Shown here one piece after another: positions 2 to 59,075 of a stretch of DNA of 60,478 nt (within the stretch, counting starts at the first letter, position 1; every line of letters starts with the position of its first letter). The position numbers and the translations under genes are program-made. Under the pieces are notes generated by a model. That model saw only the letters and a list, made by a program, of their open reading frames with translations, was not told the DNA's origin and searched no databases. This stretch comes from a virus (Duplodnaviria > Caudoviricetes): positions 1 to 60,478 of the IMG/VR virus record IMGVR_UViG_3300010354_000096, one strand, 5' to 3'.

Positions 2-454
2 AAATCTATTGGTTTATCTGATTCAGTTGCTTTGTTAGAACAACAAAAATTAGTATTAGAAAATTCAACATTTACTTCTGAAATAGGTCCATTACTTTAT
101 TTAAGTAGGTTAACAGGAAAACCGATGGATATTATTGTGAATTGGTTTATACTCATTCTTGTTTCGGTATTTGATCCATTGGCTGTGAGTTTGGTTATCG
201 CTGCAAATCATCTTAAACATAAAGAAAAAGAACAAACATTGGTTGTAAATAAAGTAGAATCACAAATTACAGACGCAGTAACTACACCTGTATTTACAAA
301 TGAAGTTACTGAAGTTATTGATACAGAAGAAGTTGAAGAAAAAAAAGACTTGGAAACTGAGGAAGAAATGAGTATATTTGTTGATAGTTTGGAACAAAAT
401 CAATTTTATCAAGAAACCCCCAATCATGGTTACAGACGGGGGATTTCTGTATAA
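2..454 (+). CDS. C-terminal part of a membrane-anchored coiled-coil phage protein (5' end outside window)
   Basis: Frame is open from base 2, upstream of the TTG at 32. Hydrophobic segment WFILILVSVFDPLAVSLVIAAN followed by an acidic tail; TAA at 452-454. Confidence 0.6.
   Translation, partial: KSIGLSDSVALLEQQKLVLENSTFTSEIGPLLYLSRLTGKPMDIIVNWFILILVSVFDPLAVSLVIAANHLKHKEKEQTLVVNKVESQITDAVTTPVFTNEVTEVIDTEEVEEKKDLETEEEMSIFVDSLEQNQFYQETPNHGYRRGISV
349..380 (+). promoter_or_regulatory. Bacteroidota-type sigma-A promoter (-33/-7) inside the first ORF, upstream of clpP
   Basis: CTTG (349-352), 20 nt spacer, TATATTTG (373-380); fits the TTTG-N19-21-TAnnTTTG consensus. Confidence 0.55.
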
Positions 455-482
455 AAAATAAAAAATATAATAGGAGTTAGTT

Positions 483-1136
483 ATGGAAGATTTGTATGAC
501 GGAAATATTGAAGATACACATAGAGTTATAAAGAAAGAGAAATCTGATGAAGATATTCCATTAAGATGGAAAGAAGCAACTACTCAAATGGATTACGGTA
601 TTGACGTAAATGCTTCAAGTGTTCTTTTGTTTGGTGAAATTATGGACGGTACTCTTTATGATTTAATTACTCGTATTAGAGCAATTATACACATGAGAGA
701 AGACGATAAAAAAAATGACCCAATAAATCTTGTTATTAATTCAACAGGTGGTTCTGTATACGAAGCGTTGGGTATAATTGACTATATTCAAAGTTTAGAT
801 GTTAGAGTAAACACAATTGTACGTGGATGTGCAATGTCCGCTGCTGCTCTTATTCTATGTGCAAGAACAGGTGTTCGTGCGGCATCTAAAAACAGTACAA
901 TAATGTTCCATGAAATGTCATCTGATATTTACGGTAAATCTTCTGATATGAAAGCAAATGTTCAACACATGGAAAAGTTAGAAGATATTCTTTTAGATAT
1001 TATGTACACAAACTCCAAAAAAGATGTTGAATGGTGGAAAACAACTACAATTAAAGATTTTTACATTACACCAGTAGAAGCATTGGAATTGGGTGTAATA
1101 GATACTATTATTCAGCCAAAACATCAGAGGAGATAA
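483..1136 (+). CDS. clpP: ClpP-family serine protease
   Basis: INLVINSTGGSV, catalytic Ser in GCAMSAA, His in IMFHE, Asp in KDFYIT, C-terminal EALELGVID; SD AGGAG upstream. Confidence 0.93.
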   Translation: MEDLYDGNIEDTHRVIKKEKSDEDIPLRWKEATTQMDYGIDVNASSVLLFGEIMDGTLYDLITRIRAIIHMREDDKKNDPINLVINSTGGSVYEALGIIDYIQSLDVRVNTIVRGCAMSAAALILCARTGVRAASKNSTIMFHEMSSDIYGKSSDMKANVQHMEKLEDILLDIMYTNSKKDVEWWKTTTIKDFYITPVEALELGVIDTIIQPKHQRR

Positions 1137-37200: not shown

Positions 37201-37348
37201 TTTAACAAGTTTCTCTATGTTTTTAGAGTACCTTAAAACTCAATTTGATTTCGTCATATTAATATCGCACATTGATGTGGTTAGAGATATGGTGGATAAC
37301 CAGATTGAAATCAAAAAAGAGAATGGATTTTCAAAAATAGAAGGATAA
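34202..37348 (+). CDS. fused Mre11/SbcD nuclease - Rad50/SbcC ATPase (gp47-gp46-like)
   Basis: HIADIH, GDIVH, GNHD, GDIH phosphoesterase motifs; Walker A APNASGKSS; coiled coil with CKFC hook (36368-36379); TSGMEK signature, IDEGLGTLD, ISH. Confidence 0.92.
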   Translation: MLNLHRVIHIADIHIRNYKRHEEYEIVFNRLYDYCRETVSKHKNTLIYVAGDIVHAKTDMSPELVEMTRNFLLNLSKIATTFFIAGNHDCNLNNKDRMDSLTPIFNTFNNNNNLFYFKETGVYPMGNVDFVVNSVFDDTKNFIKASDLEDNGRKKIVLYHGAINAAETDTGMKLHNTDVTLDLFEGFDYGFFGDIHRFQYLDSNKRFAYPGSLIQQNFGEDLKHGVIEWDLTKGTSKFVEIKNDFAYHTLEVEDGKIKNLPQEFSKNNYVRLRSINTSNSDIHKVITELKSLANILDVKVQRVGSSSDNNTSSQNKLGDIRDIAYQNTLISNYIKTNNLPADSKLLERIYEINRNVNKQVDDSDVVRNLVWTPNYFKFENMFSYGEGNVVNFDSMNGVYGLFAPNASGKSSVLDALMYCIFDKCSRTYRAIQVMNNKKDNFNCKLSFNIGERNYFIERVATKDKKGAVKVVVNFWYLDGENKVSLNGEDRDDTNRIIRKYLGTYDDFILTAMSVQGNNTNFVDKAQRERKDLLAQFLDLELFEELHTIANDDSKGVSTLIKEFSKQDYSTKILSAESKRDEAKTILLNLNSEKSEIEEKIEGFNNIIRENENKLIQVDSNLSPNSLQTLLEKEISIDRKIDETIRGMKSLEYELKGANESLDRYTLILSEFNKEDLLERRKMVDEIRLKLSKNESDLRNIKLQIQHCEDKVDNLKNHQYDPKCKFCVGNVFVQDAKKAESNLVGLNKDKDDLVAEIELLEKEFKKNSNVYTELDRLQKSENDQHFHQKTVFNLEKNIYSNKETLKGFEEDLVNVQNRILKFKENEESIKTNSLLMETIEESKNSKSMFTKELKQIETKIIDYSGDIKVQERIINDCNESIEKLKELETEYLAYDYYLKCVNRNGIPYALIGDALPKIQAETNNILSQIVDFQVIFETDGKSINTYIVYDDDNFWPLELTSGMEKFISSIAIRAALINVCSLPRPNFIAIDEGLGTLDSGVLTSFSMFLEYLKTQFDFVILISHIDVVRDMVDNQIEIKKENGFSKIEG

Positions 37349-40300: not shown

Positions 40301-41732
40301 TCCAACACAATACGATGATGGGTCTGGAGTATTACAACCAGTTGGTAATAATAATTGGTCAGTTCAACGTGTATTCTTCAATCCATTATCTGGTCGTTCT
40401 CATGTATATTATGGTCAAGCAAAATATACAACCTTACAAAATGCAATTAACGCTATTTCATCAGAACCATTTACTGAAAGTGATATTACTGCAAAATCTT
40501 ATACATTTGTTGGTTATTTGGCGGTTTTAGCTCAAACAACAAATTTAACAAACACTTCCGAAAACACAATAGTACAAGCTGGATTATTTAGGAATATTGG
40601 TGGTGGAGGCGGTGGAGGTGGTACAGGTGGTTCAACTACATTAGCAGCACTTACTGATGTTTCACTTGGTTCTCTTACGAATAATGAAGTTTTGAAATAT
40701 AATTCTACAAGTGGTAAGTGGGAAAACTCAACGGTTACAACTGCTTCATATTCTATAAATGCAGTAACCGCTTCATATCTTCTAAACGGTGGTGCTAATA
40801 TAAAAGCAGATATTGTTTCAGGTGCTTCATTTGGAGGAACACCAAAAACTGCTTCTGTAGTATTTCCTTCTGCGTATGAAGATAATTTTTATGCGGTAAG
40901 TATATCAGCAGAATCTGCTCGTGCGTGGACAATTGAATCAAAGACATTATCTGGTTTCACTATAAACTCAAATGCTTCGGATACTATTTCTGGTAATGTG
41001 TATTGGATGACGATGCCAAAATCTTCTTCATTCATTGCAACAAGAGATATTGTAACTTCAGCATCTTATGCAGCAACCGCGTCATACTATGGTGGAACAG
41101 CAGCAACTGCTTCATGGGCAATTAATTTTACAGGAGTAGCAGTATCTGCTCTAACATCAACCTCAGCATCTTATGCAGCAACTGCATCTGTACTATCAAA
41201 TAGTGGTGGTAATATAACTATAACAGGTGGTACTACTTACGATAATTTATATTTTGGTGGTACTGCATCACAATCAATTGAAGCATCTGTTGACGGTGTT
41301 GATAAAGGTGCTGTTAATTTATATTTTGGAACAGCAGCAGATTCAAGAACTTATAGATTTGCATGGCAAAATGATAGAAATGTTGTTTTATACGGTACAG
41401 GTAATATTGCACTTTGGAACACGGGCACTGCTACATCGGATTATATACTAAAAAGAAATATAAAACCAACGGAAATGAATGGAATTGAAACATTAAAGAA
41501 ATTAAATGTGATAGATTTTGAATGGAAAGACGGCACGTCGCTTTACGATGAAGGAAAAACCCATACTGGATTTGTTGCTCAAGAAGTTGAAACTATAATA
41601 CCAGACGCAATTTATTCTCCAAGTGGTAGTACAAAATTATTACACAAAGAAGAATTAGTTCCAACTTTGGTAAAAGCGTTACAAGAGGCGGTACAAAGAA
41701 TAGAAGAATTAGAAAAAAAGTTATTACTTTAA
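37368..41732 (+). CDS. long tail fibre/spike with C-terminal S74 intramolecular chaperone
   Basis: TSDYILKRNI..TGFVAQEVE..LVKALQEAVQRIEELE; LAALTDVS..LKYNSTSGKWEN fibre repeat; TASY motifs. Confidence 0.8.
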   Translation: MIEKKRFKRDFINVKTRYTETNNNSANILNITFMPELFTAGKNLFRFKPNPMFISEKFPINIEILDANGKPIYHEVLRKKERDKSINVAVYIYDSTLIGGCSITLLCTVYRDLNGILLPKNAVTKYNYKYIHTLSVDKTKVNDSEIIFAKEPKITLEEKKFSVVEEKFTNQKPSGSIGFAKYSLKDSVPTLTNFSNNFRKEFEGGKIFFPTLSSTRFPNVATASFEYSSSIVAVINPNQLILKDSVYFSGTDGAYRPVSSIENQEYNISYNNIADSRTVTQNVKSYAKLDISNLETEVGNISSIKVSVKSPNRSAQTYEFDVNKNNLLVDSDSNLIENPIGTFSKSASLDFAGVPTTSSLNTYNFWKTVSVNGAPTAIIGSSSYQTSQYVFDSISIIPSATMSGSQEIILEQTGSAATQFYKDTVYKVAFDYYNTDNVLDTREKKIAVYASGSAFRNNTEYGRYLGKVPTYTGAESVKKDFELRIPVDENGTGVLRFMMRDGAKISNIRVSSDSVYGFTPNRASVYVPIDQSYKNEYLDFKIQYFNNTLKESQVSSSVQGVFFEGGNQYIYGDDNIITGSTFISSYTASGIELFSNISGSYSGSAIQSYGYNGIEVAKLYQTTASNFGWGLTDGNPYFSSSYQKTSIQMINEAGNLIDFRANSASFDFVLGGVSSSFFLGTTGSINSNFGEGGTPTTYASYSAIQSFVKWDGSRVGLGGPIVTNLEFQKSQDPDKTGQYVSSSFLFVSTSNTPLGVDLYFRQDGNLTKLKWFEAALNSGILYGGSLSYSGNNLYVKGGSGVIVNHNASLITEVSPIISYVQWNDITASMTNIATSQNTFVYIDAAGNLQQQTSTFTPTQYHNYLPLGRVSHYDYANINGVASLVETTYDANGQQSEFIRGFGPLKLSGMSVSGQTGTLRLNVSNGTSFNLGGFYQQNPEMPSTYDSPTYNTSSIIRIYKTATGFNFDNNAGSYYTTIDPTQYDDGSGVLQPVGNNNWSVQRVFFNPLSGRSHVYYGQAKYTTLQNAINAISSEPFTESDITAKSYTFVGYLAVLAQTTNLTNTSENTIVQAGLFRNIGGGGGGGGTGGSTTLAALTDVSLGSLTNNEVLKYNSTSGKWENSTVTTASYSINAVTASYLLNGGANIKADIVSGASFGGTPKTASVVFPSAYEDNFYAVSISAESARAWTIESKTLSGFTINSNASDTISGNVYWMTMPKSSSFIATRDIVTSASYAATASYYGGTAATASWAINFTGVAVSALTSTSASYAATASVLSNSGGNITITGGTTYDNLYFGGTASQSIEASVDGVDKGAVNLYFGTAADSRTYRFAWQNDRNVVLYGTGNIALWNTGTATSDYILKRNIKPTEMNGIETLKKLNVIDFEWKDGTSLYDEGKTHTGFVAQEVETIIPDAIYSPSGSTKLLHKEELVPTLVKALQEAVQRIEELEKKLLL

Positions 41733-41772: not shown

Positions 41773-44493
41773 TTGCCAAGTATGCAAAGAGATTTAACCA
41801 ACCTGTACATATCTGAATCGTATTACAGGCTGCTTCAAACTGACCCAACTGATGATAGAACGGTTTTGGATGGAACTGGGTCTCTTGTCACGTACTTAGC
41901 TGTATCTGGAACTGTTGACGCATATTCTTTCAAAGGAGACGGTTCTCAGCTAACTAACATTTCAAACGCTGCACTTTCAGGTGGTATAGTATCCTCCTCA
42001 ACACAAACCATACAGCATTTGATTGGAACAAATATAATATCTGGTTCAGGACAAAGAAGTATTCTTGGACTTGCAACAACTGATTCACCTACATTTAACA
42101 ACCTTGTATTAACTGGTGACTTAACTGCTAGACAACTTATAGTTTCTTCTTCGGTAATAAGTGTAACACAGTCTTATAGTAGTGGTTCTACTGTATTTGG
42201 TAATACATTAGATGATACACATAGATTTACTGGTTCATTATTTTTAACTGGATCTAGTACATTTACTGGTCAACAAATTCTTCAAAGTACAAAAGTAACG
42301 TCTGAATATTTACTTAGAGCAAAAGGAAGTGGATCTGGTTCACAACTTGCTATCGGTGTTAGTAGTGATTCTAACTTCGGTATAACAAACGATATACTGA
42401 CTTACGATGGAAGTGCTTACGGAAAATATACGTTATCCGCTAATAATATACACTTTAATGTATCGAGTGGTGCTTTTAGTCAATTGGACGCATTAAAAAT
42501 AGATGGTGACGGTAAAACAACAATTCATCAGCTTTTTACTGATAACTTTATAAATACACCTGGTATTGAAAATACAGACCACAATGGTTTTGCTAAAGTT
42601 AATTGGCATAACGGTGATGGTTACTTTGCAGATGTTATAGTAGAAAGAGCAGGAATAAGTATAGATACAGGTGATGGCGATACTACATATCAATGGGTGT
42701 TTAGTAATAGTGGCTCTTTAAAACTTCCTACTTCTGCTAGTGATGGTATACTTAATCCAGATGGAAGTGTTTGGACTGCATCAATGGCAGTTACAGCTTC
42801 TTACGCATTAAATGCAACATTTGATTCGAGTTCACTTGCAACAATAAATTCAAATATATTTACTGGTAATCAAATTGTAAACGGTAATGTATTTGTTGAC
42901 GGAACACTAACTGCAAGAACTTATGTAGTTTCTTCTTCCGTGGTAAACTATGAAACTATATCTGTATCTGGTTCAACCAGATTTGGTGATACAAATGATG
43001 ATACGCATTTGTTTACAGGTTCTTTATTTTTAACGGGTTCATTATCCGTAACAAGCGGTATAACAGGTTCATTACGAGGAGTAGCAACTACTGCATCTTA
43101 TGTTCTAAACGCAGTTAGTTCTTCATTTGCAACAAACTCAATGACTGCTTCATACTATGGTGGAACAGTAACTTCAGCATCATTTGCAACTAATTCGATG
43201 ACTGCTTCTTATGTTCTTAGTTCTGTGAGTTCTTCATTTGCAACGAATTCACTTACAGCATCTCTAGCAACAACCGCGTCTTATGCACTTAATTCTGTAA
43301 CCGCGTCTTATGTGCTTAATTCTGTAAGTTCTTCTGTTTCTAATAACACTAACTTATTTGATGGATTTGGTACTAATTCATTTGCTAAGACAGGTTCAAA
43401 TACTTTTAATGCAAATCAAGTAATAAGCGGTTCTTTAACAATTACTCAAAACTTAACTGTTTTTGGTTCATCTTCATTAACTTATGTTACCGCTTCTCAA
43501 TTAGCAGTAAGTACGTCTTTTATATCAGTTAACGTTTTTGAACCGGCTCAGAGATTTGGTGGTTTGATAGTATATGATAGTGGTTCTTCTCAATCAACTG
43601 CTTCGTTAGCATGGGATAGTTTACATAATCATTGGGTATATCAAAATGCAAGTGATGGCGGATATTCTGGTGGTATGTTTATAGCAGGTCCAAAGAATAC
43701 AGGCTCTCTTGGTCAAGAACTAACATTAACCACAAACTTTGTTCCAAAAGCACAGGGTGGTGATCATATAACTGATTCCAATATTAGTGATAACGGTACA
43801 ATTGTAAGTATAAATTCAAATACAACAATAACTGGTTCATTATTAGTAACAAGTGGTATAACAGGTTCATTACAAGGTGTAGCAACTACTGCTTCATACT
43901 ATGGTGGAACTGTAACCTCAGCGTCATTCGCAACTAATTCGATGACTGCTTCTTATGTGTTGAACGCGGTAAGTTCATCATTTGCATCAACATCTGTAAC
44001 AGCGTCGTATGTTCTAAATTCTGTGAGTTCATCATTTGCATTAACTGCATCTTATGCTAATAATGTTTCTGCAACTGCTTCATATTCATTACAATCATTG
44101 AGTTCATCATTTGCATCAACTTCTTTAACTGCATCTTATTATGGTGGAACTGTATTATCAGCATCATTTGCACAAACAGCTTCTTATTTAGCAGGAACAA
44201 TTGCATCTGCATCTTACGCATTAACTGCATCTTACGTTATCGGTGGTGCTGCTAGTTCAAATGTAAAGGGTGGATATGTATCTTCTGGATCTTTTACGGG
44301 TACACCAAAAATATCTTCTGTAACATTTGGAAGCGCATTTTCGGATAATAATTATACTGTTACTGTAACTGGTGAAGATATGAGATTATGGTCAATAGAA
44401 TCAAAAACTGCAGCTGGATTTACAATTAATACAAATTCAAATGTTGATTTAACTAATTCAGTTTATTGGATTGCAACAACATTTAGTTCGTAA
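41773..44493 (+). CDS. tail fibre protein with TASY/SSSF repeats
   Basis: FKGDGSQLTNI, duplicated FG..DDTH.FTGS module, two blocks of ~9-aa S/T/A repeats; TTG start. Confidence 0.75.
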   Translation: MPSMQRDLTNLYISESYYRLLQTDPTDDRTVLDGTGSLVTYLAVSGTVDAYSFKGDGSQLTNISNAALSGGIVSSSTQTIQHLIGTNIISGSGQRSILGLATTDSPTFNNLVLTGDLTARQLIVSSSVISVTQSYSSGSTVFGNTLDDTHRFTGSLFLTGSSTFTGQQILQSTKVTSEYLLRAKGSGSGSQLAIGVSSDSNFGITNDILTYDGSAYGKYTLSANNIHFNVSSGAFSQLDALKIDGDGKTTIHQLFTDNFINTPGIENTDHNGFAKVNWHNGDGYFADVIVERAGISIDTGDGDTTYQWVFSNSGSLKLPTSASDGILNPDGSVWTASMAVTASYALNATFDSSSLATINSNIFTGNQIVNGNVFVDGTLTARTYVVSSSVVNYETISVSGSTRFGDTNDDTHLFTGSLFLTGSLSVTSGITGSLRGVATTASYVLNAVSSSFATNSMTASYYGGTVTSASFATNSMTASYVLSSVSSSFATNSLTASLATTASYALNSVTASYVLNSVSSSVSNNTNLFDGFGTNSFAKTGSNTFNANQVISGSLTITQNLTVFGSSSLTYVTASQLAVSTSFISVNVFEPAQRFGGLIVYDSGSSQSTASLAWDSLHNHWVYQNASDGGYSGGMFIAGPKNTGSLGQELTLTTNFVPKAQGGDHITDSNISDNGTIVSINSNTTITGSLLVTSGITGSLQGVATTASYYGGTVTSASFATNSMTASYVLNAVSSSFASTSVTASYVLNSVSSSFALTASYANNVSATASYSLQSLSSSFASTSLTASYYGGTVLSASFAQTASYLAGTIASASYALTASYVIGGAASSNVKGGYVSSGSFTGTPKISSVTFGSAFSDNNYTVTVTGEDMRLWSIESKTAAGFTINTNSNVDLTNSVYWIATTFSS

Positions 44494-44542: not shown

Positions 44543-45829
44543 ATGTCAACATTTTATACTAACACGGCTAGTATTGATAATCTTATAGTAACATCGTCTG
44601 CAATACTATCTGGTAGTGTAACTGTATATGGTTCATTAACTGCAACTGCTTCGTATAGCACAACTGCAAGTTTTGCATTAAGTTCACCTGCTGTATATGA
44701 CTTCGGATCATTTGCAACCCCAACTGATGTTGGTGGTGGTGGTAATTTCGGTATTGTAACCGATGGTGATAAAGGAGATATTACAGTATCGAGTTCTGGA
44801 AGTATTTGGACTATTGATAATGATGCCGTAACTTATGCAAAAATACAAAATGTAACTACATCATCCGTATTACTCGGCCGTGCTACTGCTGGTGCCGGTG
44901 ATATTGAAGAAATATCACTTGGAAGTGGATTAACACTTTCTGGATCTACTTTATCAGCAGCCGGTGGTGGTGGTGGTAGTGGTGCTCAAATTCAAATAGA
45001 TACTATTACAAGTACAAGCACTTGGACAAAGCCCGCGTGGGCAAAGTATTTTAGAGTATATTTAGTTGGCGGTGCCGGTGCAGGTGGATCAGGTGCAAGA
45101 CGAGCCACTACATCTGCTAGATATGGAGGCGGAGGAGGTGCTCCCGCGTCATCCGTATGGATTGAATTAACTGATACACAGATAACAGGTAGTAGTGTAT
45201 CTGTAACTATTGGAGCAGGTGGAATATCTGGTTCATCTGTAACTACTGACGATACAAATGGTAATAATGGGGGCAATGGTGGTGCTACTAGTTTTGGATC
45301 ATTCGCAGCTACTTATACTGCTAACGGTGGTAGTGGTGGGACAACTTCTGCAGGAAGTAGAGGTTCTGCAGTTTCAGTAATTGGTAATTACGGTCCATCT
45401 TCAACATTAGGTGGTCAAAATGGTTCTAATACAAGTCCAGGAACAGTATCAGGATTATCTAATCAGACATTGAGTTATACTGGTAATTTTGGAGGTGCAG
45501 GTGGAGCAGGCGCTGCTGGGAGTAGCACTACAACTGCTGCAGGTGGGACTTATGATTATTGGTCTCCGATTCTCCCGAGTGTTGCGGTTTCATCAGGCGG
45601 AACCAATGGTGGTGATGGAAATGATGGTGTTTCATTTACTTATGGTTATTTTACCGTAGGAACACCAGGTGGTGGTGGTTCATATAAAACAGGACAGGCT
45701 ACCGGCAGAGGTGGTGATGCTTCTTATGGAGCAGGTGGTGGAGGTGGCGCAGCTTCTGACAATGGCTTTGCTAGTGGTCGAGGTGGTAATGGTGGCAATG
45801 GTATTTGTATAGTTGTAAGTATAGGATAA
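44543..45829 (+). CDS. glycine-rich tail fibre protein
   Basis: DGDKGDITVSSSG..WTID, TWTKP..VYLVGGAGAGG, terminal GGNGGNGICIV. Confidence 0.75.
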   Translation: MSTFYTNTASIDNLIVTSSAILSGSVTVYGSLTATASYSTTASFALSSPAVYDFGSFATPTDVGGGGNFGIVTDGDKGDITVSSSGSIWTIDNDAVTYAKIQNVTTSSVLLGRATAGAGDIEEISLGSGLTLSGSTLSAAGGGGGSGAQIQIDTITSTSTWTKPAWAKYFRVYLVGGAGAGGSGARRATTSARYGGGGGAPASSVWIELTDTQITGSSVSVTIGAGGISGSSVTTDDTNGNNGGNGGATSFGSFAATYTANGGSGGTTSAGSRGSAVSVIGNYGPSSTLGGQNGSNTSPGTVSGLSNQTLSYTGNFGGAGGAGAAGSSTTTAAGGTYDYWSPILPSVAVSSGGTNGGDGNDGVSFTYGYFTVGTPGGGGSYKTGQATGRGGDASYGAGGGGGAASDNGFASGRGGNGGNGICIVVSIG

Positions 45830-47596: not shown

Positions 47597-50500
47597 ATGA
47601 TTAAAAATGTTTTACTACACGTTTCAAGATCTTATACTCCTTATGTAAAATCAAGGTTAATATATGGAAACGGTCTTGCTAGTTATGGTGAATTGGATAA
47701 TGATACGCTTTTATATACTATGAATCAAGTAGATGGTAATGCAACAACTGTATCTGCCAGTATTACAAGTCATACTACCAACGCTGCTTTATTTGTTAAA
47801 TCTAATAATTCATTATGGGGATTTGGTGGCCAACCTTCATACGAGTTGGGTGATGGTACAACCACTACTCGCTCATCTCCTGTTCAAATAGGAACACTTA
47901 CCAATTGGAAATCGGTATCAGTTGGGTATTCACATACAATAGCAGTTAAAACAGATGGTACTCTTTGGAATTGGGGACATTCTTCTTCTTTATCAAGTTT
48001 ACCAATTATTTTACGCAGCTCACCGATTCAAGTAGGTGGTGACACTAATTGGACATTTGCTACGGCAGGTGACAGTTATTCAATGGCAATTAAAACCGAT
48101 GGTACTCTTTGGGGTTGGGGTAGTAATGCGTCTGGTTCATTAGGAAATGGTCAATCTGCATTTACATTTGGTAAAGTAGTATATGGAGATAGTTATGTAT
48201 CTGCTTCTGCTGGTGAATCCCATACCCTTGCTATTAAATCTGATGGAACATTGTGGGGATTTGGCGATGATAGTAGTGGTAGATTGGGTCAAGTACAATC
48301 ATCTAATTTTTTTAATAAAGTATCTATGCCGTATGGTACAATAGTATCAGCATCTGCAACCTGGGCAACATTGTCAGGAAACAATATTTTTGTTATTGCA
48401 ATAAATTCTGATGGAACAATGTGGGGTTGGGGAGCTAATGGAAATTATAACTTAGGAGATGGTACTATTACAAATAAATCACTACCGATTCAAATAACCA
48501 CAAGTAATAAATGGACAGACGTTAAAACTGGAAATTCACATACTATTGCAATACAATCAGACGGTACGCTATGGGGTTGGGGTACTAATAATGGAGGTAA
48601 ATTAGGTGACGGAACAACTACTACTCGTTCTTTACCAGTGCAAATTCCAGGTACAAGTAATTGGACTAAAATAGCAGTTGGAGGAGATAATAGTAATGCT
48701 ATTCGTTCCGATGGTACACTATGGGGATGGGGTGCAAACAATGTTGGACAAATAGGTGATGGTACAGTTGTGTCACGTTCATCACCTGTTCAAATAGGTA
48801 CATTAACTGACTGGTCAAAGGTAGATGCAGGACTTTCACATACAATGGCAATTAAAACCGATGGTACACTATGGGGTTGGGGATTAAATACAAGTGGACA
48901 ATTAGGTGATACTTCATTAGTTAATCGTTCAAGTCCAGTTCAGATTGGTACTCTTACTAATTGGAGTAAAGTGTATGGTGGCTCTTCTTGGACGATGGCA
49001 ATAAAAACTGATGGTACACTATGGGGTTGGGGTGGTAATGCAGACGGTAATTTAGGCGATGATACATCGGTTTCACGTTCTTCACCTGTTCAAATAGGTA
49101 CTCTAACTAATTGGGCAAATGTTTCTACTCGTGGTTATGTATTTACTATTGCAACAAAGACCGACGGTACTCTTTGGGCGTGGGGAAATGATTCAAATAG
49201 CTATTATTTAGTTGGTAATATGTTTTCTGTTACTCGCTCGTCACCCGTTCAGTTGGGTACATTGACAAATTGGACAAATGTTTTTGGTGGACAAGCCATT
49301 TCTTTACCTTTAAGTTCGGACGGTTTATATGCAGTAGCAGGTAGTAATTTTTTAGGTACTGGTTATAAAGTTACAATACTTAACGTTAGTTCACCTGTAC
49401 AAATTGGAGATAATAAAAATTGGCGAAATGTTTCAACAACAAGATTGTCTGTTCTTGCTTTAAAAACCAATGGTACATTATGGGCATGGGGTAGTAATAC
49501 AGCTGGTATTTTAGGAACTAATAATACAACCCAATATACTTCGCCAGTTCAAGTGGGCACACTCACAAATTGGAACTTTGTATCTAATGGGTATTCACAT
49601 ACAATGGCAATTAAAACCGATGGTACACTATGGGGTTGGGGTAGTAATTTTAGAGGAAATATCGGTGATGGTCAATCGTATGGTAGTATAAATAAAATTA
49701 ATGTTCAAATAGTAACTCCAACTGAATATGATACGAGCACTAACCATACGTTAGTTGTTAGAAACGATTATACACTATGGGCATGGGGATTAAATACAAC
49801 TGGTCAATTAGGTGATAATTCATTTATTGCTCGTTCAAGTCCAATTCAAATTGGAACTGATACTAATTGGTCAACTGTTTCTACTGGCGGTGGATTTTCT
49901 CATGGTATTAGAACAGACGGTACACTTTGGAGTTGGGGTACTGGTGGATCTGGTGTACTTGGTGATGGGACTGTTGTTGCTAAACTCTCTCCTGTTCAAA
50001 TTGGCACATTAACTAATTGGAGTAAAGTATCAAGCAACACAAACAATTCATTTGCAATAAAAACAGATGGTACACTTTGGGCGTGGGGATTTAATGGAAG
50101 TGGTTATACATTAGGATTATTTACTGATACCGCTAATCGTTCAAGTCCAACACAAGTTGGAACTGGTAACACATGGTCATCTGTATCTGCTGGTCTTTCA
50201 CACGGTATGGCGATTAAGTCCGATAACACACTATGGGGTTGGGGTTTTAATAGTAATGGACAAATAGGTGATAATAGTGTCAGTACAAGATTTTCTCCAA
50301 TTCAAATAGGTACATTAACTAACTGGGCATCAGTAGCATCTGGTCAATCACATACTATGGCGGTAAAGACTGACGGTACACTATGGGGATGGGGAATTAA
50401 TAACCTTGGACAAGTAGGTGATACTACTACTGTGTCACGTTCAAGTCCAGTTCAAATTGGGACATTAACTAATTGGTCAAAGGTTGCAGCTGGTACAAAT

Positions 50501-53500
50501 GTCACACACGCTGTTAAAACTGATGGTACATTATGGGCATGGGGTGATGGTTCTTCTTATACATTTGGTGCAGGTAATGCTATATCTACATCACGTTCAT
50601 CACCAGTTCAAGTTGGTGTTCTTACAAATTGGACAAATGTAAAAAATACACGAGATCACGTTGTAGCTATTAATAATAATGAATTATATGAAGCAGGTAA
50701 TAATATAACAGGTTGGTCATCCGATAAATCATCACCAGTTCAAGTTGGAAGTGGTAATGATTGGACGTATGTAGATGCTGGTAATGATTACACTATGGCT
50801 GTAAAATCGAATGGTACATTATGGGCATGGGGCTTAAATACGGATGGTAATTTGGGCGATGGTACAATTCTTCCAAAAGATTCACCTGTTCAAATTGGAA
50901 CTCTAACTAATTGGGCAAAAGTTTCAACAGGAAGATTACTTAACAGAGGAACTCTTGCTTTAAAAACCGATGGAACTCTATGGGCATGGGGGCAAGCTGC
51001 TTCTGGACAATTAGGCACAAATAATCTAACCTCATATTCTTCACCAGTTCAAATTGGTACACTTACAAATTGGTCTAATATTAGTATGGGTTATGGGTGG
51101 GCTTTTGCAACAAAAAATGACGGTACTTTATGGGGCTGGGGGCAGAATTCTATTGGAGAATTAGGAAATGGATTACCAACTGCAGTTTCATCACCTGTTC
51201 AAATAGGGGGTGCAACAAATTGGTCATTTGCTTATGCTGGTGTTAATTTACATAGTATTGCTGTGAAAACAAATGGAGAACTGTATAGTACAGGTGCAAA
51301 CAATAACAATTTACTGTTACTTGGCCGTTCAACTACACAAGAAGTAATTCCAATTAAAATTGGAACTGATACAAATTGGTCAAAGGTGTATGCAGGACAA
51401 TGGGATACATTTGGTATTAAAACCGATGGAACTCTATGGGCTTGGGGTAAAAATTCTGGTGGTAAATTGGGATTGGGTGATACGACTTCAAGAAATTCAC
51501 CAGTTCAAGTTGGAACTGATACTTGGTTGAAAGTTGTAAACGCTATAAGTCATACAGTTGGTTTAAAATCGGATAATAGTCTTTATGTGTGGGGTACTGA
51601 TAATCAAGGGTCTCTTGGTAGAGGTGCTGTTAATTTAACTCGTTTTACTCCAATAGATGAAGCAGGGTGGTCTGACATAACTGCAGGTGGTTTATCATAT
51701 ACAATGGGTATTAAAACTAATGGTACACTATGGGCTTGGGGTGGTAACAATAGTTCAGGCCAATTAGGTACAAATAACACAACCACATATGCTTCACCTG
51801 TTCAAATTGGAACTCTAACTAATTGGTCAAAGGTTGTAGCTGGACAGCAACACACAACTGCAATAAAAACAGATGGTACACTATGGGGTTGGGGTTGGAA
51901 TTCAACCGGACAAGTAGGTGATAATACTACTGTGACACGTTCAAGTCCAGTTCAAATTGGAACAGATACAAATTGGGCAACAGTTGATACATACGAAAGT
52001 AGTACAATGGCTATTAAAACCAATTGGACACTATGGGGTTGGGGATTAAATACAAGTGGACAATTAGGTGATACTTCATTAGTTAATCGTTCAAGTCCAG
52101 TTCAGATTGGTACTCTTACTAATTGGTCAACTGTTTCTGTTGGCGCAAATGGCGGAGTAGCGGTTAAAACAGATGGTACTTTGTGGAGTTGGGGGAGTGG
52201 TTTATATGGTGCATTAGGTGATAATACAACTGCTGATAAATCTTCGCCTGTTCAAATTGGAACTCTAACCAACTGGGCTAGTTGTGCACGAGCAACATAT
52301 TCTTCATTAGCAGTTAAAACCGATGGTACACTATGGGCATGGGGTATGAATTGGAATGCCCAACTTGGTATTGATCAACATTACAACGCATTTGGTGAGG
52401 TGTCAGGTACTACTCAAGTAACTGCTGCATCAACTGGTGAAGGAACTGCAAGTCATTATATAAAAACAGACGGTACGCTATGGGGTTGGGGAGTAAATAA
52501 TGGTAATGGTGTAGTTGGTGATAATACAAATGCTACTAAATCATCTCCAGTACAAATCGGTACAGATAATACATGGTCAAAAATAAAAGAAAATGCTCAT
52601 GTCATGGCGTTAAAAACCAATGGAACTCTTTGGAGTTGGGGTTATAACGGTAATGGAGAACTTGGACAAAATGATAAGGCAGCTCGTTCAAGTCCAGTTC
52701 AAGTTGGTACTGATATGAATTGGTATGATTTTGCTGTTGGTAGTGGCGGTGTTACGTTAGCGGTTAAAACCGATGGTACTCTTTGGAGTTGGGGTTATAA
52801 TTTTAATGGACAACTTGGACAGAATGATACAATATCTCGTTCAAGTCCAGTTCAAATAGGTACTTTAACTAATTGGAGTAAGGTTGCAACCGGTGGTAAT
52901 ATGGGTTTTGCAATAAAAACCGATGGTACACTATGGGGTTGGGGAATAAATAGTTCAGGTCAATTAGGTGATAATTCATTAATTGCTCGTTCATCGCCTG
53001 TTCAAATAGGTACATTAACTAATTGGTCATCGATTGCGGCAGGAGCAGGAACACATACCATTGCTGTAAAAACCGATGGAACTCTATGGACATGGGGACA
53101 AGGTACTTCTGGTCAATTAGGTAATGGTATTGATACAAATAATAGATCATTTCCAGTTCAAGTTGGTTTTGATACTAATTGGTCAAAAGTTTCTGCTGGT
53201 AACGCTTCTAGCTTTGCTATAAAGACAGACGGTAGTCTTTGGAGTTGGGGAAACTATATTCAAGTAGTAGGCGCAGCGTCTTCAAATCGCTCCTCACCTG
53301 TTCAAATTGGTGGCTCAAGTGATTGGTTAGAAATAATAGCAACAACTGATGGTAGTTCATATAATCAACCATTTTTAGCAATTAATACTTCTAATAAATT
53401 ATATACCGCAAGTGGAAATAATTTTTATGATTATGCATTACTGCGACCAATAACACGTTCAAGTCCAGTTCAGGTTGGAACTTTAACTAATTGGTCTGGT

Positions 53501-56110
53501 GTTGATATTGTAAACCATACAGTAGGTCTTAGTGGGTATAGCACGATTGCTTATAAAACAGATGGTACATTATGGGCATGGGGTGATAATCAAGTATATC
53601 ATCTTGGTACAGGAGAATCTACAACTGCATATAGGTCATCACCTGTGCAAATATCAAATGTATCAAACATTAATAAACTTAGTATTAATAAAACACATTC
53701 TTTAGCAAAGAATACTGCTGGTATTGTTTACTATACTGGTACTCAAGATTTAATAATTCGTGGTAATGTTACACCAAAATCCTCACCTGTTCAACTTTCA
53801 TCTGAGAGTTGGTCTGATATATCAGTATCGAATGCAAATTCTATGGCTGTAAAATCTAATGGTACACTATGGGGTTGGGGATTGAATCAAACATACGGTA
53901 CACTTGGTATTGATGGTGATGCAACTACGAATCGTTCAAGTCCAGTTCAAGTTGGTACTAAAACAAATTGGCGTATTGCAGGTAGTGGTTATCAATTTTC
54001 AATTGGAGTTGATAATTCTAATAATTTATTTAGTACAAATTATGGTGCTGTACTTATAAAATCGTCACCAATACAAATAACATCTGCTGTAAATTGGAGT
54101 TCATTGTCAGCGGGAAATTCATTCACTATGGGTGTAAAAACCGATGGTACGCTATGGGGTTGGGGACAAAATAATATAGGTCAATTAGGTGACAATACAG
54201 TCATACCACGTTCAAGTCCAATTCAAATAGGTACTCTAACTAATTGGTCAAAGGTTACTGCGGCACAATCACAAACCATAGCAGTTAAAACCGATGGTAC
54301 ACTATGGGCATGGGGATATAATGGACTTGGGGCTTTAGGAACTGGCAATACAACAAATCGTTCAAGTCCAGTTCAGATTGGTACTCTTACTAATTGGTCT
54401 GGTATATGGACTATGTGGGATTCAAGTTTTGCAATAAAAACAGATGGTACTTTATGGTCATGGGGTTATAATGGTTTTGGACAGTTAGGAACTGGTAATA
54501 CACTTGGACTTTCCTCTCCAGTTCAAGTTGGTACATTAACTAATTGGTCAAAGGTGTTTAACGGTCAATCATCACAAACCATGGCAATAAAAACCGATGG
54601 AACTCTGTGGGGTTGGGGTTATAATCTTTATGGTATGGTTGGTGATGGAACAACTACTAATCGTTCAAGTCCAGTTCAAATCGGTACTCTTACTACTTGG
54701 TCAGGTCTTGTAACAGGAAATAATCTTACAGTTGCCGTTAAAACTGATGGTACTCTTTGGAATTGGGGTGTTGGTGGAGTTTTTGGTAATGCAAAACTAA
54801 GTACAGCAAGGTCAAACCTTATGCAATTAAGTGAAAGGAATTGGCAATCAGTAGCTGCTTCAGGTGGTCATGTAATTGCTTTAGCAACCGATGGTACACT
54901 ATGGAGTTGGGGAAGTGTTAATAATGCTGGACAACTTGGACACGGTGAGTTAGTAATTAAGTCCGCTCCATTCCAAATTGGATTTCTTAATACATGGGCA
55001 AGTGTTGCTGCTGGTAATGGTATTAGTGGTGCAATAAAAACTGATGGTACATTGTGGACATGGGGACAGAATGGGTATGGTGGATTAGGAACTAATAACA
55101 CAGCGCTTCGTTCAAGTCCAGTTCAGATTGGTACTGATACTAATTGGTCTAAAATTTCTATGAGTGAATATGATACTATAGCAGTTAAAACCAATGGTAC
55201 TCTGTGGGCTTGGGGTTATAATTTTTATGGAGAATTAGGTGACGGAACAGCCGTGAGTAGATCATCACCAGTTCAAATTGGTACTGATACTAATTGGTAT
55301 GATGTTGCTACTGGTGTTTATTTTACTCTTGCAACAAAAACCGATGGTACTCTGTGGGCATGGGGATTAAATACTGCAGGTCAATTAGGACAGAATAATA
55401 CGGTAACTGCACGTTCAAGTCCAGTTCAAATTGGAACTCTGACTAATTGGTCAAAGATTACAGGTGGTACGTATAACGCCATGGCAATAAAAACCGATGG
55501 AACTCTTTGGGGTTGGGGTTATGGTGATTCTGGTAGATTGGGTACTAATGATACAATTAGTCGTTCCTCACCGGTTCAAATAGGTACTTTAACTAATTGG
55601 TCAAGTGTTTCTGCAGCAGTAACAAATCAAGTTCATGCTATTAAAACAGATGGTACACTATGGGCGTGGGGTATTAATACGAATGGTGCTTACGGTAACG
55701 GTGATACAATAACTCGTTCAAGTCCAGTTCAAATCGGTACTTTAACTAATTGGACTACAGTTTCTTCTGCTACGTCAAACGTAATGGTAATAAATTCAAG
55801 TTACAAAATGTACTCAGCTGGTGCAAACAATGGAAACTTGGGTTATTGGATTTATGACGGTAATAATAGGTCTTCTCCTATACAAGTTGGAGCTGATGCA
55901 AATTGGACAAGTGCTATGAGTGGTTTTAGTGGTGCTGATATTATAAGAACAGACGGTACACTATGGTCATGGGGTAATAACAATTTTTATGGACAAATAG
56001 GTGATGGGACTACAGTAAACAAATCATCACCAGTACAGGTTGGCTCACTTACTTTTTGGAAAACAATAAGTACAGGATATAATCACAGAGTGGGAATAGT
56101 TGAATATTAA
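47597..56110 (+). CDS. giant RCC1/BLIP-II-repeat protein (56 blades, eight propellers), probable receptor-binding appendage
   Basis: ~50-aa unit W..V..G..H..AIKTDGTLW.WG.N..G.LG......RSSPVQIG. ATG at 47597 after GAGG is preferred over 47555. Confidence 0.9.
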   Translation: MIKNVLLHVSRSYTPYVKSRLIYGNGLASYGELDNDTLLYTMNQVDGNATTVSASITSHTTNAALFVKSNNSLWGFGGQPSYELGDGTTTTRSSPVQIGTLTNWKSVSVGYSHTIAVKTDGTLWNWGHSSSLSSLPIILRSSPIQVGGDTNWTFATAGDSYSMAIKTDGTLWGWGSNASGSLGNGQSAFTFGKVVYGDSYVSASAGESHTLAIKSDGTLWGFGDDSSGRLGQVQSSNFFNKVSMPYGTIVSASATWATLSGNNIFVIAINSDGTMWGWGANGNYNLGDGTITNKSLPIQITTSNKWTDVKTGNSHTIAIQSDGTLWGWGTNNGGKLGDGTTTTRSLPVQIPGTSNWTKIAVGGDNSNAIRSDGTLWGWGANNVGQIGDGTVVSRSSPVQIGTLTDWSKVDAGLSHTMAIKTDGTLWGWGLNTSGQLGDTSLVNRSSPVQIGTLTNWSKVYGGSSWTMAIKTDGTLWGWGGNADGNLGDDTSVSRSSPVQIGTLTNWANVSTRGYVFTIATKTDGTLWAWGNDSNSYYLVGNMFSVTRSSPVQLGTLTNWTNVFGGQAISLPLSSDGLYAVAGSNFLGTGYKVTILNVSSPVQIGDNKNWRNVSTTRLSVLALKTNGTLWAWGSNTAGILGTNNTTQYTSPVQVGTLTNWNFVSNGYSHTMAIKTDGTLWGWGSNFRGNIGDGQSYGSINKINVQIVTPTEYDTSTNHTLVVRNDYTLWAWGLNTTGQLGDNSFIARSSPIQIGTDTNWSTVSTGGGFSHGIRTDGTLWSWGTGGSGVLGDGTVVAKLSPVQIGTLTNWSKVSSNTNNSFAIKTDGTLWAWGFNGSGYTLGLFTDTANRSSPTQVGTGNTWSSVSAGLSHGMAIKSDNTLWGWGFNSNGQIGDNSVSTRFSPIQIGTLTNWASVASGQSHTMAVKTDGTLWGWGINNLGQVGDTTTVSRSSPVQIGTLTNWSKVAAGTNVTHAVKTDGTLWAWGDGSSYTFGAGNAISTSRSSPVQVGVLTNWTNVKNTRDHVVAINNNELYEAGNNITGWSSDKSSPVQVGSGNDWTYVDAGNDYTMAVKSNGTLWAWGLNTDGNLGDGTILPKDSPVQIGTLTNWAKVSTGRLLNRGTLALKTDGTLWAWGQAASGQLGTNNLTSYSSPVQIGTLTNWSNISMGYGWAFATKNDGTLWGWGQNSIGELGNGLPTAVSSPVQIGGATNWSFAYAGVNLHSIAVKTNGELYSTGANNNNLLLLGRSTTQEVIPIKIGTDTNWSKVYAGQWDTFGIKTDGTLWAWGKNSGGKLGLGDTTSRNSPVQVGTDTWLKVVNAISHTVGLKSDNSLYVWGTDNQGSLGRGAVNLTRFTPIDEAGWSDITAGGLSYTMGIKTNGTLWAWGGNNSSGQLGTNNTTTYASPVQIGTLTNWSKVVAGQQHTTAIKTDGTLWGWGWNSTGQVGDNTTVTRSSPVQIGTDTNWATVDTYESSTMAIKTNWTLWGWGLNTSGQLGDTSLVNRSSPVQIGTLTNWSTVSVGANGGVAVKTDGTLWSWGSGLYGALGDNTTADKSSPVQIGTLTNWASCARATYSSLAVKTDGTLWAWGMNWNAQLGIDQHYNAFGEVSGTTQVTAASTGEGTASHYIKTDGTLWGWGVNNGNGVVGDNTNATKSSPVQIGTDNTWSKIKENAHVMALKTNGTLWSWGYNGNGELGQNDKAARSSPVQVGTDMNWYDFAVGSGGVTLAVKTDGTLWSWGYNFNGQLGQNDTISRSSPVQIGTLTNWSKVATGGNMGFAIKTDGTLWGWGINSSGQLGDNSLIARSSPVQIGTLTNWSSIAAGAGTHTIAVKTDGTLWTWGQGTSGQLGNGIDTNNRSFPVQVGFDTNWSKVSAGNASSFAIKTDGSLWSWGNYIQVVGAASSNRSSPVQIGGSSDWLEIIATTDGSSYNQPFLAINTSNKLYTASGNNFYDYALLRPITRSSPVQVGTLTNWSGVDIVNHTVGLSGYSTIAYKTDGTLWAWGDNQVYHLGTGESTTAYRSSPVQISNVSNINKLSINKTHSLAKNTAGIVYYTGTQDLIIRGNVTPKSSPVQLSSESWSDISVSNANSMAVKSNGTLWGWGLNQTYGTLGIDGDATTNRSSPVQVGTKTNWRIAGSGYQFSIGVDNSNNLFSTNYGAVLIKSSPIQITSAVNWSSLSAGNSFTMGVKTDGTLWGWGQNNIGQLGDNTVIPRSSPIQIGTLTNWSKVTAAQSQTIAVKTDGTLWAWGYNGLGALGTGNTTNRSSPVQIGTLTNWSGIWTMWDSSFAIKTDGTLWSWGYNGFGQLGTGNTLGLSSPVQVGTLTNWSKVFNGQSSQTMAIKTDGTLWGWGYNLYGMVGDGTTTNRSSPVQIGTLTTWSGLVTGNNLTVAVKTDGTLWNWGVGGVFGNAKLSTARSNLMQLSERNWQSVAASGGHVIALATDGTLWSWGSVNNAGQLGHGELVIKSAPFQIGFLNTWASVAAGNGISGAIKTDGTLWTWGQNGYGGLGTNNTALRSSPVQIGTDTNWSKISMSEYDTIAVKTNGTLWAWGYNFYGELGDGTAVSRSSPVQIGTDTNWYDVATGVYFTLATKTDGTLWAWGLNTAGQLGQNNTVTARSSPVQIGTLTNWSKITGGTYNAMAIKTDGTLWGWGYGDSGRLGTNDTISRSSPVQIGTLTNWSSVSAAVTNQVHAIKTDGTLWAWGINTNGAYGNGDTITRSSPVQIGTLTNWTTVSSATSNVMVINSSYKMYSAGANNGNLGYWIYDGNNRSSPIQVGADANWTSAMSGFSGADIIRTDGTLWSWGNNNFYGQIGDGTTVNKSSPVQVGSLTFWKTISTGYNHRVGIVEY
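48866..48964 (+). repeat. 99-bp perfect direct repeat, second copy at 52028-52126
   Basis: ACACTATGGGG...CTAATTGG identical at both sites by direct comparison. Confidence 0.9.
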
Positions 56111-58583: not shown

Positions 58584-59075
58584 ATGCATTATGTACACGT
58601 AGAAAACGGTGAAATAAAAGGATTTCCAATGCCGTTGCCTAAATCTTGGGGTAATATATCAAACTTTGATTTACTCGATGACCAGTCATTACGTCAGTAC
58701 GGTTGGTATAAATACACATTTATTCCTGCACAACAAACTGAAACAAATTATACAGATGGTTCAACTGTTGTAATAACTGAAGAAGGTGTAATTGAATATC
58801 AACTTCTTAAAGAAAAAACCGAAGAACAAATTCAAAAAGAAATAGAAAGCCGTTGGGAAAATATTCGTTCTCAAAGAAATGTGTATTTGTTAGAGTCCGA
58901 TTGGACACAACTCGAAGATTCTCCATTATTAGCACAAGAAAAAGAAGAATGGAGAGTATATCGTCAAGCTTTGAGAGATATAACAAATTTTGCAACACCA
59001 GACGAAGTTGTATGGCCAACAAAACCATCTAATGAATTAAGAACTTCGGTACAACCGAATGGAGAAGTTTCTTGA
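58584..59075 (+). CDS. phage tail-fibre assembly chaperone
   Basis: IRSQRNVYLLESDWTQLEDSP..WRVYRQALRDIT..WPTKP. Confidence 0.88.
   Translation: MHYVHVENGEIKGFPMPLPKSWGNISNFDLLDDQSLRQYGWYKYTFIPAQQTETNYTDGSTVVITEEGVIEYQLLKEKTEEQIQKEIESRWENIRSQRNVYLLESDWTQLEDSPLLAQEKEEWRVYRQALRDITNFATPDEVVWPTKPSNELRTSVQPNGEVS

Follow-up and report, generated by a model that had tools for sequence, protein, structure and literature searches.

Within the 60,478-nucleotide stretch of viral DNA analyzed here (hereafter the window), which is the entire IMG/VR virus record IMGVR_UViG_3300010354_000096 (Duplodnaviria; Caudoviricetes), one open reading frame (ORF) encodes an RCC1-repeat protein of 2837 amino acids (aa) that carries 56 RCC1-type blades. 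We propose that these blades form eight seven-bladed beta-propellers nested within one another as a tree and that the protein is borne on the virion for multivalent binding; the tree as parsed together with this binding proposal is a reading that we consider likely. Nesting as such is considered somewhat more probable still, while the claim that every level is exactly as parsed is regarded as less certain than nesting itself. Four results carry the argument: an opener/closer grammar in the sequence, the generality of this grammar in relatives, insertions and deletions (indels) of whole propeller units, and a predicted nested fold for the root propeller and the propeller inserted within it, P7.

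Blade map and nested parse

We define a blade as strands A-B-C-D plus the GxLG loop that comes after them, an opener as a blade with a deviant first (A) strand, and a closer as one with a deviant last (D) strand plus a deviant loop. Splitting the protein on the motif P[VIFT][QK] yields 49 anchors, with six over-long units concealing 7 motif-less blades, and anchoring on the D strand yields 56 units. A hidden Markov model (HMM) of 50 columns built from 35 canonical blades, with the consensus RSSPVQIGTLTNWSKVSAGNSSTMAIKTDGTLWGWGLNSSGQLGDGTTVS, matches the protein 56 times (55 full blades and one C-terminal partial), and its matches, numbered 0-55, are the blades referred to below. The A-strand motif (SSPVQ) is absent from blades 0, 3, 4, 13, 26, 31 and 47, and the D-strand motif (LWxWG) is absent from blades 10, 19, 23, 37, 39, 41 and 53 as well as from the C-terminal partial blade 55, which ends after strand C. 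A first-pass annotation made from the sequence alone had already claimed 56 blades, a count now re-derived both by D-strand anchoring and by the HMM. It had also named seven openers (B0, 3, 4, 13, 26, 31 and 47), which are the same blades with their peptides at the same positions, and seven closers (B11, 20, 24, 38, 40, 42 and 54), which correspond in position to the HMM closers 10, 19, 23, 37, 39, 41 and 53. The irregularities it flagged are present too, namely irregular loops in B2 and B37 and IPIK in place of SPVQ in B24, and the parse is unaffected by them under the closer rule.

According to this rule, each closer claims the last seven unassigned blades, and the first blade of the set is the predicted opener. 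Parsed as a stack in this manner, the 56 blades fall into eight sets of exactly seven (Table 1), reproducing the bracket string ((()())(()))() and the eight sets proposed at first pass. From the closers alone, the first blades are predicted to be 0, 3, 4, 13, 26, 31, 42 and 47, which recovers all seven observed openers; the additional blade 42 is the first blade of the root and is expected to be canonical. When seven openers and seven closers were placed at random, none of 2,000,000 trials gave an all-seven parse (the analytic estimate is about 6e-10). A more conservative null, in which the four contiguous opener-to-closer runs were collapsed and the other three openers and three closers were placed on the remaining 28 blades, gave all-seven parses in 819 of 9,582,300 placements (8.5e-5), and the all-seven pattern claimed earlier stands under both tests.

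Could the eight propellers instead form from consecutive runs of seven blades, like beads on a string, with the 14 odd junctions being merely degenerate repeats? Many shorter relatives with 15 or 22 HMM matches and no internal opener or closer do look like plain tandem propellers with velcro closure. However, the 14 deviant junctions occur in nested order rather than alternating as tandem domain boundaries would, and the closers foretell the openers under the nested rule only.

In the nested architecture that we propose, one chain of 56 blades would form the eight propellers as a tree through recursive domain insertion. Each child propeller would branch off from its parent in the loop that, after the outer D strand and GxLG turn of one blade, leads to the inner A strand of the following one. 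It would begin with a non-canonical A strand (the opener), continue through seven complete A-B-C-D blades and end with a non-canonical D strand and a linker (the closer), after which the chain would pick up the parent at its canonical SSPVQ strand. The root would bear P1 and P7, P1 would bear P2 and P5, P2 would bear P3 and P4, and P5 would bear P6, giving a tree of four levels, with the sequences of P1, P2, P5 and the root each interrupted by inserts. Contiguous children may fold once made, while parents would close only upon the return of the chain. The first-pass annotation had all insertions entering the same surface loop. The kind of loop is indeed the same, namely the D-to-A connection after GxLG, but its position is not, as insertions in the 2837-aa protein would follow parent blade 0 (the velcro blade), 1, 3 or 5, and in relatives also 2. 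As for the root, it would be closed by an N-terminal D strand pairing with C-terminal strands A-C and would thus join both termini. The N-terminal 41 aa contain a D-strand-like segment, LIYGNG, with a GELD loop, in place of which relatives carry the more canonical ELWGMGQTLGGELD, and the C-terminal blade has strands A-C only. These two features fit one another, and we read the N-terminal strand as the probable fourth strand of the root's last blade in a 3+1 velcro closure.

The gene itself appears sound. GAGG lies 8-9 nt 5' of the ATG at 47597 and the N-terminus MIK(N/D)(V/I)LL(H/Q)VSRSY(T/N)PYV is kept among relatives, and on these grounds we take this ATG as the start rather than an upstream TTG at 47555. 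A mis-assembled repeat array is an unlikely source of the blade pattern, because DNA copies of the blade repeat share only 60-82% identity across stretches longer than 100 nt, another contig is 100% identical to the protein over its first 300 residues, and a separately assembled orthologue is 68% identical. The record is linear with a CheckV completeness estimate of 34%, and so it represents a piece of a large genome from an uncultured phage; its ORFs are nearly all on the + strand and its G+C content is 0.27-0.40. Residues 1-601 score 293.6 bits against Pfam WD40_RLD (PF25390; cut-off 150), 227 bits against RCC1 (PF00415; cut-off 21.7) and 175.8 bits against RCC1_2 (PF13540; cut-off 22), and of the 51 PF00415 matches in the record, 44 fall inside the frame. 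A cluster look-up of the protein yields the generic name "alpha-tubulin suppressor-like RCC1 family protein". If the nested reading is correct, the closer rule would be a simple means of segmenting giant repeat proteins that domain callers show as a flat RCC1 array.

The same rule in relatives

A homologue search with residues 1-300 against proteins of 1560-4965 aa provided 120 listed homologues, cited below by four-digit numbers, which together with the query give 121 proteins analyzed. The lengths of many of those listed lie near multiples of about 355 aa. The final classifier judges the A strand at HMM columns 4 and 6 and the D strand at columns 33, 35 and 36; plain regular-expression event lists, a first HMM rule and a segment-based regular-expression rule were rejected since they misclassified diverged relatives. 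Complete parses from closers alone were obtained for 11 of the 121 proteins (query included), and in all 11 every expected opener is deviant in its A strand: 8 of 8 in P0003, 7 of 7 in each of P0001, P0013, P0015, P0016 and P0017, 6 of 6 in P0029, and 4 of 4 in each of P0107, P0109, P0110 and P0119. These 11 proteins represent six topologies with 5, 7, 8 or 9 propellers and nesting up to five levels. A seventh topology is found at the syntenic locus L078, where a protein of 1458 aa and 28 blades parses completely into four propellers with 3 of 3 openers; written with one dot per blade, its bracket string reads (...(.......)....).....(.......)..).

Comparisons between relatives also reveal indels of whole units; a look for homologue indels at opener/closer pairs was among the checks that the first-pass annotation had suggested. 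The orthologue P0003 aligns with the query over 2809 columns at 65% identity, and the only large gaps in the alignment are of 249 and 107 aa at P0003 residues 2642-3012, separated by a 15-residue repeat island. The extra stretch comprises P0003 blades 52-58, from the opener KLTLNKV to the closer YLHSGG, and sits between the orthologues of query blades 51 and 52, inside the query's P7. P0003 has thus gained exactly one seven-blade unit within P7, which means that a propeller contiguous in the query is discontinuous in the orthologue. A whole seven-blade unit lying within a seven-blade run also argues against a chain of consecutive sevens. Similarly, P0029 and P0107 are 57% identical, and P0029 has an extra 243 and 438 aa (14 blades), ending at the end of its closer blade 41.

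At three metagenome loci, L073, L074 and L078, an RCC1 gene of varying size lies between the same flanking genes as in the window. Between these flanks, L078 encodes four propellers, the window eight and L074 about eight, the L074 gene (2849 aa, 55 HMM matches) being incompletely parsed. The identity of the RCC1 N-terminus to the query is about 40% in L074 and L078 and 68% in L073. We favor, with moderate confidence, a recursive grammar in which the opener and closer motifs permit repeated insertion, yielding branched chains of 4-9 parsed propellers with four to five levels, and through which phages add, delete and re-nest whole propellers between conserved flanks. Such gain, loss and re-nesting would remodel the protein quickly. 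As relatives are available with 4, 5, 7, 8 and 9 propellers, three of them between the same neighbor genes, these ideas are directly testable. One pair deserves separate mention: P0015 and P0017, which have 56 blades each and share 72% identity, nevertheless differ in the topology parsed for the C-terminal half, and their alignment contains four single-blade offsets. Either the tree is re-nested rapidly or one of the two parses is wrong. Another homologue, P0115, exhibits at blades 9-10 a closer-like D strand followed directly by an opener-like A strand, within what is otherwise one seven-blade propeller; this may be what is left of a former insertion, or just a degenerate junction.

Predicted fold and known propellers

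Residues 2152-2837 (blades 42-55) were modeled with AlphaFold2 (AF2) without templates, using a 12-row family alignment whose rows are the equivalent 14-blade modules of family members. Since 14 blades could form two consecutive or two nested propellers equally well, the choice of fragment favors neither reading. The model has a mean predicted local distance difference test score (pLDDT) of 80.9 and a predicted template modeling score (pTM) of 0.62. Only fragment residues 1-4, 242-254 and 593-606 score below 50 in pLDDT, and the latter two stretches (aa 2393-2405 and 2744-2757) are the linkers just ahead of the opener strand and just past the closer strand. Its blades are four-stranded, apart from the first, for which three strands are listed, and the C-terminal partial blade, which has three. 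An inner propeller occupies residues of about 249-616 and an outer one spans 12-686 around it. In superpositions on solved structures, for which the ranges denote the first and last aligned residue only, matches on the inner propeller included UVR8 (8gqe_B; Z 49.7, root-mean-square deviation (rmsd) 1.6 Å, 339 aligned residues, model 262..616) and the second RCC1-like domain (RLD) of HERC2 (RLD2, 7q40_C; Z 46.8, 1.6 Å, 332 residues, model 249..583), whereas two further UVR8 chains matched over ranges spanning nearly the whole fragment (4dnv_A, Z 44.2, 1.8 Å, 321 residues, model 12..686; 6xzm_A, Z 43.9, 1.7 Å, 319 residues, model 14..686). Aligning about 320 residues at 1.8 Å across a range of 675 residues requires skipping about 350 residues in the middle, and the model is therefore nested, with the predicted root consisting of blades 42-46 plus 54-55 and the predicted P7 of blades 47-53. 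These are the two of the eight propellers for which seven four-stranded blades closed into a ring are predicted. The whole-propeller insertion claimed at first pass is matched by this contiguous inner propeller within a two-segment outer one. A grouping into consecutive sevens is not what the model shows, as residues 12 and 686 lie in one propeller and about 249-616 in the other, and we regard such an arrangement of the protein as highly improbable.

A subtler alternative is that nesting is partial. In this case P3, P4, P6 and P7 would be genuine inserts, while P1, P2 and perhaps P5 would not close as seven-blade rings within a single chain; they might instead be open arcs, pair differently, or complete their rings between the subunits of an oligomer. 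The structural model covers the root and P7 and not P1, P2 or P5, whose closure we deduce from the grammar. Parent rings that close after 1000-2100 residues would be demanding for folding, and the different topologies of P0015 and P0017 suggest that the tree is plastic. On the other hand, all levels count exactly seven both in the query and in the other parsed proteins, across seven topologies in all; the three non-trivial openers (blades 0, 3 and 26) are predicted from the closers at the chance level of 8.5e-5 given above; and the root, the sole discontinuous propeller modeled, closes as predicted. We consider partial nesting unlikely on balance, though more credible than consecutive sevens.

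Several observations weigh against the full nested reading. Firstly, the structural support is a prediction from a shallow 12-row alignment, one row of which (P0003) was partly mis-registered by MAFFT, and only one of the seven insertions, that of P7 into the root, was modeled with confidence. A single-sequence AF2 prediction of aa 1343-2062 (P5/P6) reached a pLDDT of only 29.4 and provides no structural test of that level. In addition, some model ranges (262..616) extend about 20 residues beyond the closer, so the assignment of strands at the junction is tentative. Secondly, 110 of the 121 proteins were not parsed by the automated classifier. Many of these are other architectures and some are family members with diverged motifs that defeat the rule; they include three of the nine exact VSRSYxPY carriers (P0012, P0081 and P0115), and P0115 parses only once two blades are reclassified by eye, which is a subjective step. 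Thirdly, blade similarity by position is positive when all positions are considered (2 of 5000 permutations by rotation reach the observed value), but inner positions 2-6 exhibit no position-specific similarity (1059 of 5000). The all-position signal consequently mostly restates the opener/closer features and adds no independent support, and this lack of support for the nested register from inner blades is a point in favor of consecutive sevens. Given the inner-position result, we also no longer consider P5/P6 a duplicate of root/P7; the two are 50% identical in the family alignment, which may be no more than for any two blade runs here.

When compared with known systems, the closest in fold are single RCC1-like domains (RCC1, UVR8, the HERC2 RLDs and the RPGR RLD), which share the repeat and the seven-bladed unit. 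However, these are contiguous with one per chain, whereas the present protein would have eight nested in one chain, and its inserted propellers would run from an A strand to a D strand without N/C velcro, as judged from sequence and DSSP assignments. A Ran nucleotide-exchange or ultraviolet-sensing role is not implied by the likeness to RCC1 and UVR8. BLIP-II chains also match the model (3qhy_B, Z 28.4; 1jtd_B, Z 28.2), more weakly than UVR8 and HERC2 and as a fold match only. Phages and bacteria also have plain RCC1 propeller genes of the same blade family, but these lack internal openers and closers and are contiguous, single or in tandem. Viral contigs encode mostly single RCC1 propellers of about 380-410 aa, often in several adjacent genes, and supplied no rows for the family alignment. 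Four such contigs (L055, L034, L005 and L032) have four to nine adjacent genes of about 380-475 aa, each encoding an RCC1 propeller or part of one, which is a multi-gene route to many propellers as opposed to a single nested chain.

Insertion into a propeller has precedents of other kinds. The integrin alpha I domain is inserted between propeller blades. In the crassvirus muzzle protein gp44, a phage tail protein, immunoglobulin-like domains are inserted between the blades of a seven-bladed propeller (PMC10172136). In both cases the inserts are of a different fold, at a single level and without an opener/closer grammar, unlike the repeated same-fold insertion proposed here. Likewise, the RCC1 propeller of UBR5 is discontinuous, being interrupted past blades 1 and 4 by further domains (bioRxiv 10.1101/2022.11.03.515015), and UBR5 chains were among our fold-search matches with a long chain range; the UBR5 inserts are a UBA domain and small beta domains at one level, whereas those of the 2837-aa protein would be propellers. 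Several propellers per chain also occur in AIP1/WDR1, GH74 xyloglucanases and DDB1-type triple propellers, but essentially in tandem rather than nested. The C-terminal propeller of AIP1 has its last blade completed by a strand from the N-terminus, a closure that formally resembles the one proposed for the root. We know of no multi-level nesting among double- or triple-propeller proteins. Among phage proteins, the C-terminal domain of phiKZ gp131 (4gbf_B) is a weak match to the model (Z 17.6), and the platform of the phi11 receptor-binding protein is likewise reported as a propeller on a tail or baseplate protein (PMC4901313); both belong to other propeller families with one propeller per chain, and the gp131 match reflects a common fold only.

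A first fold search of the PDB gave no two-propeller match, as no row aligned more than 347 residues, and in a wider search the only longer alignments were to GH74 (448 residues, rmsd 13.4 Å) and AIP1 (439 residues, 12.1 Å). No nested propeller was thus found among solved chains, although a true match could escape given the uncertain inter-domain orientation of the model (its pTM is 0.62). Full-text literature searches, with subscription journals and supplementary files outside their reach, likewise revealed neither a propeller nested in another propeller nor one fold nested over several levels. Domain insertion and multi-propeller proteins are each known; what would be new here is same-fold insertion repeated to give seven inserts and four levels, with a readable grammar. 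If correct, this would represent the first self-similar, multi-level, same-fold domain nesting. It would enforce a last-in-first-out folding order with children made ahead of parent closure, and would provide a natural test case for the folding of highly discontinuous domains, with P1 closing about 2,100 residues after its start. It would also offer a design scaffold in which whole propellers could be added or removed at defined junctions.

Gene neighborhood and possible role

When examining the surroundings of the gene, it is evident that it is located within a tail/tail-fiber module whose synteny is conserved in relatives (Table 1). Further upstream are a baseplate wedge gene and a tail lysozyme, and the 334-aa downstream gene is followed by a TylF-like methyltransferase and then a GT2-like glycosyltransferase-like protein. 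The immediate upstream neighbor has an N-terminal Mtd_N domain; Mtd_N belongs to the major tropism determinant, which is a target of diversity-generating retroelements in other phages. The phage uses the RCC1 fold at least twice: a second RCC1 protein of 1700 aa (17505-22607, + strand) is encoded a few genes past the baseplate wedge gene and has one RCC1-like domain in its middle, with seven PF00415 matches at nt 19719-20738.

Table 1. Segments of the 2837-aa protein as assigned by the closer rule, followed by neighboring genes
Feature	Position	Strand	Remarks
RCC1-repeat protein ORF	47597..56110	+	open frame, stop codon included, 2837 aa
N-terminal 41 aa	47597..47719	+	MIKNVLLHVSRSYTPYV conserved; D-strand-like LIYGNG (aa 21-26), GELD loop
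P1 blades 1-3 of 7	47720..48157	+	HMM blades 0-2; opener TLLYTMNQV
P2 blade 1 of 7	48158..48325	+	HMM blade 3; opener SAFTFGKV
P3, contiguous 7-blade propeller	48326..49384	+	HMM blades 4-10; opener SNFFNKV, closer GLYAVAG
P2 blades 2-3 of 7	49385..49681	+	HMM blades 11-12
P4, contiguous 7-blade propeller	49682..50725	+	HMM blades 13-19; opener YGSINKI, closer ELYEAG
P2 blades 4-7 of 7	50726..51340	+	HMM blades 20-23; closer ELYSTG
P1 blades 4-5 of 7	51341..51631	+	HMM blades 24-25
P5 blades 1-5 of 7	51632..52381	+	HMM blades 26-30; opener LTRFTPI
P6, contiguous 7-blade propeller	52382..53455	+	HMM blades 31-37; opener YNAFGEV, closer KLYTASG
P5 blades 6-7 of 7	53456..53776	+	HMM blades 38-39; closer IVYYTG
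P1 blades 6-7 of 7	53777..54058	+	HMM blades 40-41; closer NLFSTN
Root blades 1-5 of 7	54059..54805	+	HMM blades 42-46; share a propeller with 54-55 in the AF2 model
P7, contiguous propeller, predicted insert in root	54806..55867	+	HMM blades 47-53; opener RSNLMQL, closer KMYSAG
Root blades 6-7 of 7	55868..56107	+	HMM blades 54-55; last blade strands A-C only
Tail-fiber-like ORF	37368-41732		tail-fiber PHROG/Pfam family
906-aa ORF	41773-44493		unassigned; between the first two tail-fiber-like ORFs
Tail-fiber-like ORF	44543-45829		tail-fiber PHROG/Pfam family
Upstream neighbor, 494 aa	46104..47588	+	Mtd_N N-terminal, tail-fiber PHROGs C-terminal; syntenic in relatives
Downstream neighbor, 334 aa	56192..57196	+	no known family
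Tail-fiber assembly family ORF	58584-59075		downstream; PHROG

The branched multivalent adhesin of the first-pass annotation is supported as far as its nesting is concerned, while "adhesin" is a role suggested by gene context only. We think it somewhat more probable than the alternatives that this is a virion-borne protein binding the host with several propeller faces at once. This proposal draws upon the conserved tail-fiber synteny, the fast divergence of the protein, the second RCC1 domain near the baseplate genes, and weak PHROG matches to two "tail protein" families (phrog_11922, E 1.2e-7; phrog_20500, E 4.1e-7), the other PHROG matches being to "regulator of chromosome condensation" families. 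Against it, neither Pfam nor PHROG recognizes a virion-anchor or trimerization domain in the protein. Presumably, a large phage with a contractile tail would carry the protein on its virion, with docking possibly via the N-terminal 17-residue peptide, which is conserved well above the remainder of the protein and is a candidate docking element as judged from this conservation. Up to eight propeller faces could then be offered to a repeating structure on the host surface. Should this be correct, recursive nesting would constitute a new route to a multivalent, rapidly remodeled host-binding device.

A different function is possible, if less probable: the protein may be a soluble or injected binder or inhibitor of a host protein, or it may decorate the capsid or tail without taking part in adsorption. 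The functions of RCC1-like domains are diverse, the beta-lactamase inhibitor BLIP-II is among the fold matches (Z about 28), the protein has no known tail-fiber anchor or trimerization module as noted above, and the methyltransferase and glycosyltransferase-like genes next in the cluster indicate that it is not purely structural. Nevertheless, the gene lies between tail-fiber-like genes and a tail-fiber assembly gene in an order conserved in relatives, and the same phage places an RCC1 domain in the 1700-aa protein beside its baseplate genes. Furthermore, the protein diverges far faster than its downstream neighbor, a pattern typical of host-contact proteins: the 334-aa gene is 82-85% identical in L074 (11183-12175) and L078 (5116-6114), where the RCC1 N-terminus is about 40% identical. 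That 334-aa protein matched nothing in Pfam or PHROG, gave no PDB match with E below 0.59, and may be a conserved partner or part of a modification cluster.

Two further observations concern the sequence of the protein and its neighborhood. The canonical blade segment TLTNWSKV, which includes an N-x-S motif, is present in most repeats; given these repeats and the glycosyltransferase-like gene 1.6 kb downstream, one could imagine that the protein is glycosylated, but this is pure speculation. Upstream of the tail-fiber-like genes, an ORF of 1048 aa (34202-37348, + strand) matches SbcD-like (aa 6-362) and SbcC-like (aa 230-1047) PHROG families as well as Metallophos and AAA_23, and it looks like a fused SbcD/SbcC-like nuclease.

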